In this document: piece after piece, positions 7,303 through 12,214 of the stretch
How the letters are laid out: each line of letters begins with the position of its first letter
Numbering within the stretch: the stretch's first letter is position 1
Source of the DNA: a virus
Lineage: Duplodnaviria; Heunggongvirae; Uroviricota; Caudoviricetes
Reading direction: 5' to 3' (one strand)
IMG/VR virus record: IMGVR_UViG_2778261256_000004
Span: 1-22,473 of that record
Length of the DNA stretch: 22,473 bases
Notes under the pieces: generated by a model
Databases searched by the model: none
The model's input: only the letters and a program-made list of their open reading frames with translations
Told to the model about the DNA's origin: nothing
Position numbers and translations under genes: made by a program

Positions 7303-8200
7303 GCACTGGAAAAACATTACTATTTATAAACTTTCTCGTGAGGCGGATCTGACCGACTTAGAAGATAAAAAGAAAATGATCCTTTTCACGCCATGCGGTA
7401 GTCAGGATATGGCCAAGTTCGGTTTTGTATCGCCATTTGGTGATAATTCCGAAGTTATCGCTATGCATGGAAATGGTTTTATCCTTGTTGAAGCAAAGCG
7501 CGAAACAAAAATTCTTCCCCCGCCGGTTATCCAGCGAGCTATTCAAGAAAAAATTGAAAAACTTGAGCAAGAACAAGCGCGTAAACTGAAGAAAACAGAG
7601 AAGGACTCCCTGAAAGACGAAGTTCTGCATTCTCTTCTGCCACGGGCTTTTTCAAAGTTTTCTGTTATCCAGGCGATCTACGACGGTTCAACTAAACGTA
7701 TCTATATCAATGCCAGCGCGCGGCAGGCAGAGGATATGCTCGCGCTTATGCGTAAGTCTCTGGGTTCTCTTCCTGTTGTTCCCCTGAGTGTTGAAAATCC
7801 CATTGAATTAACGCTGACCGACTGGGTACGTGATGGTAGTGCTCCACAGGGATTTCAAATGGGGGATGCGGCAGAACTTAAGGCAGTGCTTGAGGATGGC
7901 GGTATTGCCCGAGTGAAAAAGCAGGATTTGGGAAGCGATGAAATTTCCACACACCTGGAAGCTGGCAAGCTCGTCACTAAGTTGGCACTCGACTGGCAGA
8001 ACCGCATTAAATTTACACTGGACCATAACTTCAGCCTTACCAGCGTCAAATTTGCGGATGAATTGCTTGAGCAGAACTCTGATATTGATAGTGAAGATGT
8101 TGCGCAGCGACTGGACGCAGATTTCTTCCTGTTGACCAGTGAAATTTCGTGCCTGGTTGATGCTCTGGTAAATGCCCTTGGTGGAGAGGCTAAGCAGTGA
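7295..8200 (+). CDS. hrdC: RdgC-like recombination-associated protein (P1 HrdC)
   Basis: 301 aa from the ATG at 7295. Strong collinear similarity to E. coli RdgC as recalled, including blocks [63 protein letters not shown] and a C-terminal GGEA. The track ORF from 7181 is an upstream extension. Confidence 0.88.
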
Positions 8201-10461
8201 AAGAGCTGTGCTATGGATCTGTTTGCAGTGGAATTGAAGCCGCGAGTATTGCCTGGGAACCGTTGGGTATGCGTCCGGCGTGGTTTGCTGAAATCGAGTC
8301 TTTTCCATCTGCCGTTCTTGCGCACCGCTGGCCCCATGTCGCGAACCTTGGCGACATGACAAAACTCGCCCAAAAAGTCCAGGCTGGAGAAATTGAAGCC
8401 CCTGATGTGCTCGTCGGGGGTACGCCTTGTCAGGCATTCAGTATCGCGGGCTTACGTGGTGGGCTTGATGATGAACGCGGCGCGCTAACTTTGAAGTATG
8501 TGGAGCTTGCAAATGCAATTGACGACAAACGGTCTGAGTCCTTCCTCAAACCGACAGTTATCGTCTGGGAAAATGTCCCAGGAGTCCTGTCATCAGCAGA
8601 CAACGCGTTCGGATGTTTCCTTGCCGGATTGGCTGGAGAAGATGCGCCATTCGAACCTGGTGATCGACCTGAATCACGAAAAAGTAACACGTTCTGGCGG
8701 TGGGATGTCAAAACCGGTTGCCATGCTCCAAAGTGGCCGCAGTGTGGTTGTATTTATGGACCGCAGCGAAAGGTGGCCTGGAGAATCCTTGATGCCCAAT
8801 ACTTCGGAGTGGCACAACGACGCCGACGCGTGTTTGTTGTCGCAAGTGCTCGAACAGACCTCGATCCCGCAACGGTACTTTTTGAGTTCGAAGGCGTGCG
8901 CCGGAATATTGCGCCGAGCCGAAAAAAGAAGGAAATCGCTTCCGCCATTACTGCAAATGGCGCTGCAATCAGTGGCGAAAGCCTAAATCCATGCCTACAC
9001 GCTGGCATGTCCCCCGATATGAAATCGACGAAAGCCGTAAACGGTTTCAGGATGGCGGCATTTGGGGAATATATTGACGATGAAACCGCATCGACAGTAA
9101 AGGCAAGAGACTTTAAAGATGCCACTGACCTTGCCGTTTTTAGCAGCACTGGAGCAGGTTTTTGGTCAGAAGGGCATGGTACATTGCGGGCGCGTGAGCA
9201 AGAAAGCCATGAGCATCTTGTTACATTGGCTTTTCCTGAGCGTATGAGTGGTACACAACATGCAGCAACTAAGAATACTTCACCATCTCTAATGGCTCAA
9301 AATCCAACTGCTGTTTGCTATGAAGTAAGAAACGAAGAAGTAGCTGTCCGCCGTCTTACCCCTGTCGAATGTGAGAGACTTCAAGGTTTTCCTGATGGAC
9401 ATACGTTGATCCCTACGGAAAAGCGTAAAAAAGTTAATTCAGATGAACTGGCATATCTGCGCAATCACTATCCAGATTTAAGCGAAGAAGAGGCCGCGAT
9501 GCTTGCAGCTGACGGACCGCGTTACAAAGCGATCGGCAATAGTATGGCGATACCAGTAATGCGCTGGATTGGCGAGCGGATTACCAAGGCTGCATGTCGG
9601 CAGAATGAAGGGCGTGAAACAAAAGAGCGAAAAGTTAAACCAGCGGCAGAATTCGAACGGTCCATATTCAAATGGGCTGGTGGAAAATTTGGTGTTCTGG
9701 AACAAATCTTTCGCTATTTGCCAGAAGGGAAGCGCCTGATCGAACCTTTTGTCGGTGGCGGAGCTGTCTTCACGAATGCCGGATACCAGGAAAATCTGCT
9801 AAATGATGTGAATGCTGACCTGATTAACTTTTACAAGACTCTGCAACGCGAGGCGCATTCACTTATCACACTGGCGCGTCGGTTTTTCCAGGACTACAAC
9901 ACACAGGAAGGATACCTGGCAGTACGGAATGCGTTTAACAAACAAGTCTATGATGATTTACATCGCGCAGCGGCGTTTTTGTTCCTGAACCGACATTGTT
10001 TTAACGGATTGACGCGTTACAACCAGGCCGGTGAGTTCAATGTCGGTTATGGGAAGTATAAAACTCCGTATTTCCCATTACAGGAGATGGAAGCCTTCCT
10101 CGGTGCGGAAGGGTGTTCTGAGTTTGTATGTGGTGATTTTGCTGCGGTGATTGAAGCTGCCGGAGAAGGAGATGTCATCTTCTGTGATCCGCCGTATGAA
10201 CCGCTTCCAAATACAGAGGGATTCACGAACTATTCCGGTCATGACTTTAAGTTTGAAGAGCAAAAACGCCTAGTGTCTCTGTTGACGGATGCTCATCGCC
10301 GAGGTGCAAAGGTTCTCATTACTAACAGTGGCGCGCCAAACATCAGAGAGCTTTATCATGACAATGGCTTCAGAGTGGAGCCTCTTTTTGCCAGACGTTC
10401 TGTGTCTTGTAAGGGGGACACTCGAGGTGTTGCTCATGACGTTTTAGGTATATTGCTCTAA
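8197..10461 (+). CDS. dmt: Bifunctional DNA methyltransferase: N-terminal C5-cytosine MTase fused to C-terminal Dam-like N6-adenine MTase (P1 Dmt-like)
   Basis: 754 aa with GTG start overlapping the hrdC stop, behind a GGAGAGG RBS. C5 motifs [12 protein letters not shown] (PCQ), VIVWENVPG (ENV), [12 protein letters not shown] and [10 protein letters not shown]. The C-terminal 270 aa align block by block with E. coli Dam ([42 protein letters not shown], catalytic FCDPPYEP). Confidence 0.92.
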
Positions 10462-10479
10462 TAAATTTATTAGTGTAAT
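10452..10479. promoter_or_regulatory. Overlapping bipartite C1 operator at the dmt stop codon
   Basis: ATTGCTCTAATAAATTT at 10452-10468 is a 17 of 17 match to the recalled C1 operator consensus and includes the dmt TAA stop. An inverted second copy, AAATTTATTAGTGTAAT at about 10463-10479, matches 15 of 17. Confidence 0.65.
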
Positions 10480-10642
10480 ATCGCCTCAATGAATCGTGAT
10501 TTATAGAGCGATTTAGCTGTTAGCCGCGACAGGCGCGGCGGTAAGCATGGCTGGGCCTAGTCCTCCCAGACAAACCACCGAGTTGCCAGGTTGACCATGC
10601 GCCTAAGTGGCAACGCCGAAGTGCGTTACGAGCTTCCAGTTT

Positions 10643-10668
10643 GCCCATCTTCGGGTGGGCGTTTTTTT
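10643..10668 (+). terminator. Strong intrinsic terminator (UUCG tetraloop hairpin plus U tract)
   Basis: GCCCATC-TTCG-GGTGGGC gives a 7-bp stem with one G-U pair and a UUCG loop, followed by GTTTTTTT. About 180 bp downstream of the dmt stop and the operator pair. Confidence 0.7.
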
Positions 10669-11133
10669 CAGGGTTTTCGTCATGGTTAGCGACTTTGCGG
10701 CGGTTTAGAAACTGACCATTAAAGTAAATGCAAACGATGATCTGATGATGGTAGCGGCCTAAGAAGCCAGACGCCACGGGGTATGAGTCGTCCCCCGTCA
10801 AAAAATCGACCGCAGAGTGTCCCCGTCTGTGTATTAGGGAACGGGGAGGCACAACAGGTAAGGGCGCTGGTGTGATTAACCAGATGAACGAGAAGGGGCC
10901 ATCTGTTGGTCAGCGTCCTTTCCTGTTGCGTCTTCTTTTCAGCGTAACAGCGGTGCTTAACAGCACTTTGGGTACAGTTCCACGAATTTACGGGTATATC
11001 CCGTCATGCTGAAGGCGCTAATCACGCTGGAAGCCAGGGTTGTGCATCCCCTGTTACCGAATTGCAGCCAGGGCGCGGTGCGCCGAAAAGCATACGGAGG
11101 TGGAAGCCCTCGCCGGAGACGTACCCGGCAAGT

Positions 11134-11209
11134 GATGGTGTAGCTCAGCGGTTAGAGCGGTTGACTGTTAATCAACGGGTCGATGGTTCAAATCCATCCG
11201 CCATCGCCA
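11134..11209 (+). tRNA. tRNA-Asn (anticodon GUU)
   Basis: 76-nt canonical cloverleaf folded by hand: acceptor GATGGTG/CGCCATC, D-arm GCTC-AGCGGTTA-GAGC, anticodon arm GTTGA-CTGTTAA-TCAAC, T-arm GATGG-TTCAAAT-CCATC, encoded CCA. The anticodon loop is identical to E. coli tRNA-Asn. Confidence 0.88.
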
Positions 11210-11211
11210 AT

Positions 11212-11287
11212 GCCGGTTTAGCTCAGTTGGTAGAGCGCCTGCCTTGTAAGCAGGATGTCAGCGGTTCGAGTCCGTTAATCGGCACCA
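11212..11287 (+). tRNA. tRNA-Thr (anticodon UGU)
   Basis: 76-nt cloverleaf 2 nt after tRNA-Asn: acceptor GCCGGTT/AATCGGC, anticodon arm CCTGC-CTTGTAA-GCAGG, T-arm AGCGG-TTCGAGT-CCGTT, encoded CCA. Confidence 0.88.
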
Positions 11288-12214
11288 ACACAACAGGTAA
11301 GGGTATTTTGCGACGTCGGAGATCGCCGTGCTTGGCAGAGGGTTCGAATCCCTACGAAGTACCCTTACCGTTGTGATGAATGCGCAGGCTGATGCGCGAA
11401 AGACATTGCAGCTATTGCGGAAAAGAGCTGTTCGGCGGGGCAATTAAACGCCCGTGAGAGTCTGAAATAACCGCAAGCCGGAGATCAGCACCGGTCATCA
11501 CAACACAACAGGTAAGGGCATTCTCCCTTATGGGGCTTGGCTTAAATGCATCGAGTGCTCTTACCGTTGTGATGAAGTGCAGCTCTTTGAAGCAACCAGA
11601 AGATAAGCATCTGGCTTCACAACATAAACCGCAGGAACGACCAATAAACGGTAGTCCGTATGGAGAACACCCCGTTGAGGAAGAGGCCTGGCCGGAACCG
11701 TAACCGGCACTACAACGTTGAGAACACTGGCGTAACGGGGTCATATCCCAATCTACGAATAAATGTTGCGTTGCAGCGTGACAACCAGTGTTCTCAACAT
11801 TGTGGTGAATGCACAGGCTGATGTGCCGCAACTACAGTAGTGCGCGCTTTGCGGGGCTTGCTACAACCCTGTGTCGGAGTTCAGCACCGACCATCACAGT
11901 TTGATTCTCTGGCATGAGCATAACGCTGAAATAAGTCCAGTCTGGTGCGGCCCGATCACCCGCCGTTAGCTCCACGAAACGGAGCACGTAACAGGTAAGA
12001 GCATTCTCCTGTAACGGGTTCATATCCCAATCTACAGGTCCACCAGGAATGCTCTTTCCGTTGCGGTGAATGCGGCTAAGCGCACGCGGAACAGTTAAAA
12101 CAATCCTCCTTAATGGTTAAACATTCCGGCGTTAATTGTTAACTGGTTAACGTCACCGGGAGGCACTCGGCACCGCAATCTAATAAATATGTCACTTTTA
12201 TTGAGGGATAACCA

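Follow-up and report, generated by a model that had tools for sequence, protein, structure and literature searches.

The window analysed here is a 22,473-nucleotide (nt) stretch of viral DNA (Caudoviricetes; IMG/VR record IMGVR_UViG_2778261256_000004, positions 1 to 22,473), which over positions 10300-11300 is 99% identical to phage P1 (GenBank AF234172, 68515-69514) and likewise to many P1-like phages and plasmids. Between dmt and the operon that contains transfer RNA (tRNA) genes, tciABC and ban, it carries two operators of the repressor C1, a promoter, a conserved structured RNA domain, which we refer to as module A, and an intrinsic terminator. We consider it probable, on balance, that this unit encodes a C1-controlled RNA of ~180 nt, the counterpart of the long form of DicF, with a terminator that is leaky ahead of the tRNA-tci-ban genes. 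On this reading, an RNA gene under C1 repression has been joined to the 5' side of the ban operon.

In a lysogen, C1 bound to the overlapping operators would block the promoter P1ban. Upon derepression, RNA polymerase would start at ~10488 and transcribe a hairpin at the 5' end, module A with its pseudoknot, and a short 3' body specific to P1. The terminator, with its UUCG loop and U7 tract, would halt most polymerases, releasing the ~180-nt RNA, and those that read through would proceed to an RNA resembling transfer-messenger RNA (tmRNA), the tRNAs, tciABC, and ban. Because only read-through polymerases would reach the downstream genes, the terminator would set the ratio of the small RNA to the operon transcript. 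We infer accumulation of the P1 RNA, incomplete termination, and an action of this RNA in trans; it is plausible as a discrete species because it is homologous to an RNA that accumulates as the 190-nt DicF in E. coli. The original prediction from the sequence had envisaged either a repressor-controlled small RNA of ~190 nt or an attenuator. The promoter and a span of ~180 nt from start to terminator are borne out, and the homology to the 190-nt DicF species makes the discrete RNA plausible, whereas the attenuator part is not supported. The prediction did not foresee that the conserved element is a pseudoknotted domain also present in lambdoid prophages, that the 3' body differs from DicF, or that the terminator hairpin is evolutionarily tied to a tmRNA-like RNA further downstream. 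If the proposed reading is true, P1 gains a small RNA that belongs to the DicF lineage and is under repressor control, and an old annotation of a "dicF-like region" becomes a testable RNA domain.

Module A is a structured domain shared with the DicF region

Module A (10523-10616, plus strand) consists of three hairpins, H1 (10523-10539), H2 (10551-10569), and H3 (10580-10616), and a pseudoknot in which positions 10540-10550 pair with 10595-10603 in the H3 loop. When 23 distinct copies are aligned, the pseudoknot appears as a nine-pair helix between the H1-H2 junction (GGUAAGYAUGG) and the H3 loop (CCAURCGCC), and RNAalifold selects this long-range helix unaided. The structure pairs 93% of alignment cells, versus 36-51% when the partners are slid. 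Double (compensatory) changes are found in H2, H3, and the pseudoknot alike, with the caveat that divergence is mostly between two clades, so that independent compensatory events are few; the E. fergusonii copy has a further H3 variant, GUGAUCA/UGAUCGC. The invariant loop CAGGUUGACCAURCGCYURAGUG is present in the window copy. Two hairpins of this region had been singled out before the analysis: GCCGCGACAGGCGCGGC lies at 10523-10539, exactly where it had been placed, and GTTGCCA/TGGCAAC also exists, its arms being at 10582-10588 and 10608-10614, about 9-10 nt away from the earlier placement at 10573-10604. As judged from the alignment, module A is shown to be a structured RNA domain that has apparently been under selection.

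In a BLAST search with 10480-10670, only 10524-10618 was conserved outside P1-like elements, with 75-79% identity to lambdoid phages (mEp460, cdtI, and Stx2 phages). In mEp460, module A, with ~76% identity to the window copy, is located directly 5' of a genuine DicF (scored at 76.7 bits by the Rfam model) and dicB, in the repressor-proximal early operon, and in K-12 Qin it is located directly 5' of dicF. The "dicF-like region" of the P1 record AF234172 is annotated 100 nt beyond P1ban and corresponds to ~10576-10677 in the window. A covariance model of module A was built from the alignment, with the E. fergusonii plasmid left out of training. Its scores were 103.7 bits for the window, 125.6 bits for Qin, and 67.4 bits for the unseen E. 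fergusonii plasmid, and at expect values (E) up to 10 it had no other match in 87 kb, the whole HK022 genome included. Rfam, searched at E up to 10 over 10400-11140, has no family for module A.

A stable hairpin with a T-run comes within 48-104 nt after module A in each of the 153 instances sampled, which represent 78 distinct tails. What lies between module A and the terminator is variable: it can be canonical DicF, the cdtI/Stx2c type, one of several others, or the P1 type. In the window, the P1-specific 3' body (10617-10642, plus strand) comprises a small hairpin, GAAGU/GCUUC (10618-10636), and a linker, CAGUUU, in the position of the DicF body, and module A is followed by a Rho-independent terminator, as at a DicF-like 3' end. 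DicF itself was rejected as an assignment for this body: the Rfam model RF00039 (gathering threshold, 48 bits) has no match in 10400-11140 at E up to 10, though it recognizes the mEp460 copy.

Published Northern blots of DicF show two species, one of 190 nt with a 5' end generated by RNase III and one of 53 nt produced by RNase E. Counted back from the 3' end of DicF, the 5' end of the 190-nt species falls ~20 nt upstream of H1; therefore, long DicF comprises module A and DicF, and the E. coli counterpart of module A belongs to a stable RNA. The U tract ends ~180 nt after the P1ban start (~10488), and the P1 unit would thus be the counterpart of long DicF. Taken together, this distribution shows that module A, the putative pseudoknotted 5' domain of long DicF, is common to the plasmid prophage and the lambdoid prophages, with 3' ends that appear to be interchangeable, and the predicted P1 RNA represents a form of the DicF cassette that is new.

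The operators and the promoter are those of P1

The first C1 operator, Obana (formerly Op72a; 10452-10468, plus strand), matches the consensus ATTGCTCTAATAAATTT at 17/17 positions and overlaps the dmt stop codon. The second, Obanb (formerly Op72b; 10463-10479, minus strand), matches at 15/17 positions, is inverted, and has a 6-bp overlap with Obana. Thus, the perfect operator over the stop codon and the inverted second copy described in the original prediction are both present. Four C1 sites with three or fewer mismatches were observed in the window versus 0.10 expected. Two further operator-like sites, at 6930-6946 (plus strand, 16/17) and 20518-20534 (minus strand, 15/17), are presumably other known P1 operators. 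No P1-type operators were found in the fetched flanks of D6, pSa1423, and the E. fergusonii plasmid.

The operator pair lies over an annotated promoter, as had been expected: it is P1 Obanab (Op72ab) with P1ban. This sigma-70 promoter (10453-10481, plus strand; -35 TTGCTC at 10453-10458 and -10 TAATAT at 10476-10481) was mapped from the P1 annotation, and its hexamers and 17-nt spacer are the same as those of the annotated P1ban. Because the hexamers match the consensus at only 7/12 positions, a consensus scan does not call it. The transcription start would be at ~10488-10489. The P1 annotation has another predicted promoter, P2ban, which maps to 10436-10467. In AF234172, the divalent operator Obanab (formerly Op72ab) is annotated as controlling ban expression, alongside P1ban and the predicted P2ban, and P7 carries the same operators. 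Control of ban by C1 from Obanab in the lysogen, by occupying the operators and blocking P1ban, is likewise annotated.

Within 10432-10700, the window differs from P1 at only two places, position 10446 and one additional T in the U tract, and in a comparison with the equivalent P1 interval the operators, the promoter, and the downstream genes are the same. Because of this near identity to P1 Obanab/P1ban, the predicted repressor-operator-promoter part is already known rather than new. The novelty of the unit had been overstated in this respect: the operator, the promoter, and the "dicF-like region" are all annotated in AF234172.

The terminator dominates the folding of the leader

The intrinsic terminator (10643-10668, plus strand) was called by a scan and has the UUCG tetraloop and the tract of seven U's that had been attributed to it. 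Its 7-bp stem, GCCCAUC/GGUGGGC (10643-10649/10654-10660), closes the UUCG loop and is followed by a G and then by T7 at 10662-10668; it folds with an energy of -12.8 kcal/mol and is present in the ensemble with a pair probability of 0.99-1.0. The leader also has a predicted 5' hairpin (10489-10515, plus strand; AUGAAUCG...CGAUUUA), which starts with a 5-codon AUG...UAG frame. The predicted transcript would begin AUG AAU CGU GAU UUA UAG (MNRDL*; 10489-10506), a possible leaderless mini-open reading frame, and the E. albertii plasmid copy of this frame has a synonymous CGU>CGA change. The mini-frame may be due to chance.

A classical attenuator, in which an alternative antiterminator pairing in the leader chooses between termination and read-through, is very unlikely. 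The only competing pairing is that of CCGAAG (10616-10621) with CUUCGG (10649-10654), which can form before the 3' arm of the terminator is made. However, the terminator has the near-complete pair probability given above, and the structure without it is 9 kcal/mol worse; moreover, the competing pairing is missing in the E. fergusonii and D6 variants, where the hairpin is retained, and no sensor element is evident. The proposed terminator/antiterminator switch is therefore unsupported, as the terminator dominates the folding of the leader and the lone alternative pairing is not conserved.

Evidence against a DicF-type RNA, and alternative roles of module A

Several observations weigh against the proposed C1-controlled RNA of the long-DicF type. 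A literature search for P1 with dicF and for the P1 transcriptome returned nothing relevant and no P1 expression data. The fold of the whole leader is no more stable than that of shuffled sequences (z = -1.5). Complementarity of the P1 3' domain to the ftsZ start region ranked 26-27 of 41, no better than shuffles, in a test in which the DicF control was weak too (rank 7, p ~0.1), and the P1 3' body, folded as the hairpin at 10618-10636 and the terminator, leaves little single-stranded seed. Finally, D6 and pSa1423 retain the terminator and everything downstream of it and have neither module A nor a P1-type operator; since these elements do without module A, it is dispensable for the ban operon.

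The last observation also bears on a simpler explanation, a plain leader with an insulator, in which the hairpin merely stops dmt and late transcripts and trims the output of Pban, and module A is a functionless passenger that came to P1 from a lambdoid prophage. On the one hand, the terminator lies 180 nt past the dmt stop codon, D6 and pSa1423 manage without module A, and the mosaic junctions are of the kind expected from recombination. On the other hand, the P1 and lambdoid copies differ in H2, H3, and the pseudoknot by changes that preserve the structure, the query 10440-11135 is covered to at least 80% by 457 plasmid records, and the strict coupling of module A to a terminator argues for a functional cassette. 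We regard the passenger explanation as unlikely.

Module A could alternatively be a cis-acting RNA that alters RNA polymerase or terminator efficiency and passes a set fraction of transcripts, similarly to the put antiterminator RNA of phage HK022. In every case it sits just ahead of an intrinsic terminator, beyond which lie genes that are needed (dicB in the prophages; tRNA-tci-ban in P1), and its compact pseudoknotted fold with an invariant loop sequence would suit such a role. However, put RNA has two stems in ~70 nt and lies near its promoters, and D6 has the terminator and the operon without module A. The assignment of module A as put RNA itself was rejected because the purpose-built covariance model finds nothing in HK022. 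A put-like role is rather improbable, and the C1-controlled counterpart of long DicF remains our preferred interpretation of the unit.

A tmRNA-like module lies downstream of the terminator

Immediately 3' of the terminator is a tmRNA-like module, module B (10669-10848, plus strand). It contains GGUUUUCGUC, which matches the D-loop analogue of tmRNA, a region like pseudoknot 1 of tmRNA, a tag frame (10730-10762, plus strand; GCA...TAA, ANDDLMMVAA*), an H-type pseudoknot (~10783-10819, plus strand), and a hairpin with a conserved loop (~10828-10845, plus strand). The tag frame, GCA AAC GAU GAU CUG AUG AUG GUA GCG GCC UAA, has no start codon and has an in-frame stop upstream; UAAAU precedes the resume codon.

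The interval ~10672-10848 has 70-88% identity to unannotated DNA in ~290 phage records of unrelated groups (among them Ackermannviridae, Gamaleyavirus/N4-like phages, and Drexlerviridae). These relatives are often located within tRNA clusters, and nearly all of the listed records are unannotated there, a few having a 'hypothetical protein'. The tag frame comprises 10 codons and a stop in 129 of 130 loci, with 21 peptide variants (e.g., ANDDVVLMAA, ANDEQFLAVA, and ANEEMYLAVA). It is the sole frame open in all 36 distinct contexts and shows synonymous turnover of Ala codons; the synonymous fraction is 0.22 in the tag frame versus 0.02 and 0.11 in the other frames. The pseudoknot after the tag has at least seven variants of stem 1 and at least four of stem 2, all of them complementary. 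Two copies look decayed: in pSa1423 (L248) the stop codon of the tag is lost (GCC AGC TCA...), and in the contig L093 other sequence replaces the tmRNA-like module after GCGGCGGTTTAG.

The Rfam model of permuted tmRNA (RF04321) gives 24.1 bits in the window and 27-33 in other phages, versus the 47 required, and stays below threshold in every phage tested. ARAGORN called no tmRNA in the window, phiEa2809, phiMAM1, Bp4, CS01, and the contigs L199 and L218, nor did it detect in module B a tRNA-like domain, with its G3.U70-bearing acceptor stem, T-arm, and CCA end. It did call complete permuted (two-piece) tmRNA genes in the IMG/VR viral contigs L163, L165, L224, L240, L244, and L130. The 10-residue tags of these contigs, which may be phage-borne or host flank, resemble those of module B (ANDNSYRMVA, ANDERFLMAA, ANDNAFLMAA, and others). 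Beside module B, ARAGORN also reported a 'tRNA-Cys(ACA)' in phiMAM1 (L007 1280-1371, 92 nt) and Bp4 (L008 1673-1751, 79 nt), both of which look degenerate or non-standard. A survey of ssrA genes from 2014 gives mycobacteriophages and Bacillus phage G as the only phages, and a search of an incomplete literature library for phage-encoded tmRNA and tmRNA-like elements found no description of the module B RNA.

The terminator hairpin is linked to module B

In D6 and pSa1423, dmt, the P1-type operator, and module A are missing, yet from ~10640 to tRNA-Asn both are more than 90% identical to the window. The terminator hairpin is, by this comparison, evidently co-inherited with the downstream sequence (~10672-10848) and evolutionarily linked to module B, since D6 and pSa1423 share both despite different upstream DNA. 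In D6 (L129 753-1500), ~750 nt of non-coding sequence precede the shared terminator hairpin and include a long hairpin, AAGAAAGAAGCCGACU...AGUCGGCUUCUUUCUU. This different RNA module stands in the place of module A, and pSa1423 has the same one.

One way to account for the linkage is that the P1 3' body and the 'terminator' together represent what is left of the acceptor piece in a permuted tmRNA gene, with the hairpin at 10618-10636 resembling a T-arm and the acceptor stem closed by UUCG, and so belong to module B and not to a DicF-type RNA. The inheritance of the hairpin with module B in D6 and pSa1423, whose upstream DNA differs, is in favor of this explanation, and so is the MAFFT alignment to the permuted tmRNAs that ARAGORN called in viral contigs, in which P1 GGGUGGGCG falls on the 5' strand of the acceptor and GGUUUUCGUC on the GGUUUCGAC motif, albeit with thin support. 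However, the T-loop and CCA are absent, the G.U pair is at position 2 instead of 3, ARAGORN calls nothing, and unrelated hairpins precede module B in other phage families. We find a tmRNA remnant of this kind improbable.

It is conceivable, and we suggest this tentatively, that the 'terminator' doubles as the 5' hairpin of an undescribed class of phage RNA that is tmRNA-like and has no tRNA-like domain. In P1, such an RNA would be made only by read-through of transcription that began at the C1-controlled promoter, so the operator-terminator unit would gate an RNA that reprograms or interferes with host trans-translation; or else the hairpin and the small hairpin preceding it would form a minimal acceptor piece. 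The tmRNA-like RNAs are kept in P1-like plasmids, Ackermannviridae, N4-like phages (Gamaleyavirus), and T1-like phages, and they retain a 10-codon tag frame under selection as well as a pseudoknot that covaries. The terminator would thereby decide the supply of polymerase to a widespread tmRNA-like phage RNA, and if the module B RNA truly engages ribosome rescue, it would represent a new phage route to host translation quality control.

Neighboring sequences and genes

Between module B and tRNA-Asn (10849-11133, plus strand), a long stem, ACAGGUAAGGGC.../...GUCCUUUCCUGU (10849-10947), is followed by a stretch that is near-invariant in the P1 lineage. The long-stem motif, ACAGGUAAGRGC ... GCYCUUUCCGWUG, is found in the window and in the contigs L199, L218, L343, and others. 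In T1-like contigs, the long stem occurs on both sides of the tmRNA-like module with variable inserts, some with a T-arm-like GAGGGUUCGAAUCCCU. The P1 stem GGGCGCU/AGCGUCC, if cut there, would give G1-C72, G2-C71, and G3.U70. Bacterial Y RNA (YrlA) was considered for the long ACAGGUAAG stems and rejected, as they do not contain the published GNCGAA motif and match no Rfam family. The following ~180 nt (10950-11133) hardly vary between P1, P7, D6, and three divergent plasmids and abut the 5' end of tRNA-Asn; BLAST found no homologue of this segment outside the P1 lineage. It has GGAAGCC...GGG/CCC motifs reminiscent of pseudoknot 3 of tmRNA.

The gene order is as in P1: dmt (8197-10461), a gene-free stretch of ~670 nt, tRNA-Asn, tRNA-Thr, plp/upl on the opposite strand, tciABC, tRNA(CAU), ban, and dbn. 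The TAA stop codon of dmt, at 10459-10461, falls within the first C1 operator. The tRNA-Asn and tRNA-Thr genes (11134-11287, plus strand) are the first annotated genes of the ban operon 3' of the terminator. A search of the whole window with all 4227 Rfam families at gathering thresholds returned three tRNAs only. The interval is protein-free, as the original prediction had stated: the sole open reading frame of at least 60 amino acids that touches it, at 10520-10852 on the minus strand, is interrupted in relatives and was rejected as a gene, because P7, D6, and three P1-like plasmids have at least two stops in every frame.

Comparison with known systems

The control region agrees with P1 Op72ab (Obanab)/P1ban in its overlapping inverted operators, in its location at the end of dmt, and in the genes that follow; one base differs upstream, and there is no other difference, this part of the window being the known element in a P1-like replicon. 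What lies beyond it, one promoter, an intrinsic terminator within the leader, and operon genes further on, is the arrangement of small RNAs that arise by premature termination in a 5' leader. In contrast to these, no ligand-sensing or switching element was found in P1, and its domain also occurs in prophage RNAs that undergo processing.

Like the put RNA of HK022, module A is a structured element of the nascent RNA in an early phage operon, upstream of terminators to be passed; however, put has two stems in ~70 nt, and module A has three hairpins and a pseudoknot in ~95 nt. Module B resembles two-piece (permuted) tmRNA in its start-less 10-codon frame, which runs from GCA AAC GA. to a hydrophobic-Ala-Ala end and a stop, in UAAAU before the resume codon, in the GGUUUUCGU motif, and in the pseudoknot after the tag. 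It differs from two-piece tmRNA in having no T-arm, CCA, or acceptor piece, in scoring 24-33 bits versus 47, and in being negative with ARAGORN.

A close parallel to the predicted RNA is the long (190-nt) DicF of the Qin/lambdoid dicBF operon. The P1 RNA would differ from it in that its 5' end would be set by a repressor-controlled promoter instead of RNase III cleavage of a polycistronic RNA, and its 3' body has neither the sequence nor the stem-loops of DicF and, in a weak test, showed no sign of pairing with ftsZ. Both, however, have module A as the 5' domain, followed by a terminator-bearing 3' domain, and a similar overall length, and both are located upstream of genes that affect cell division (in P1, according to the annotation of tciA).

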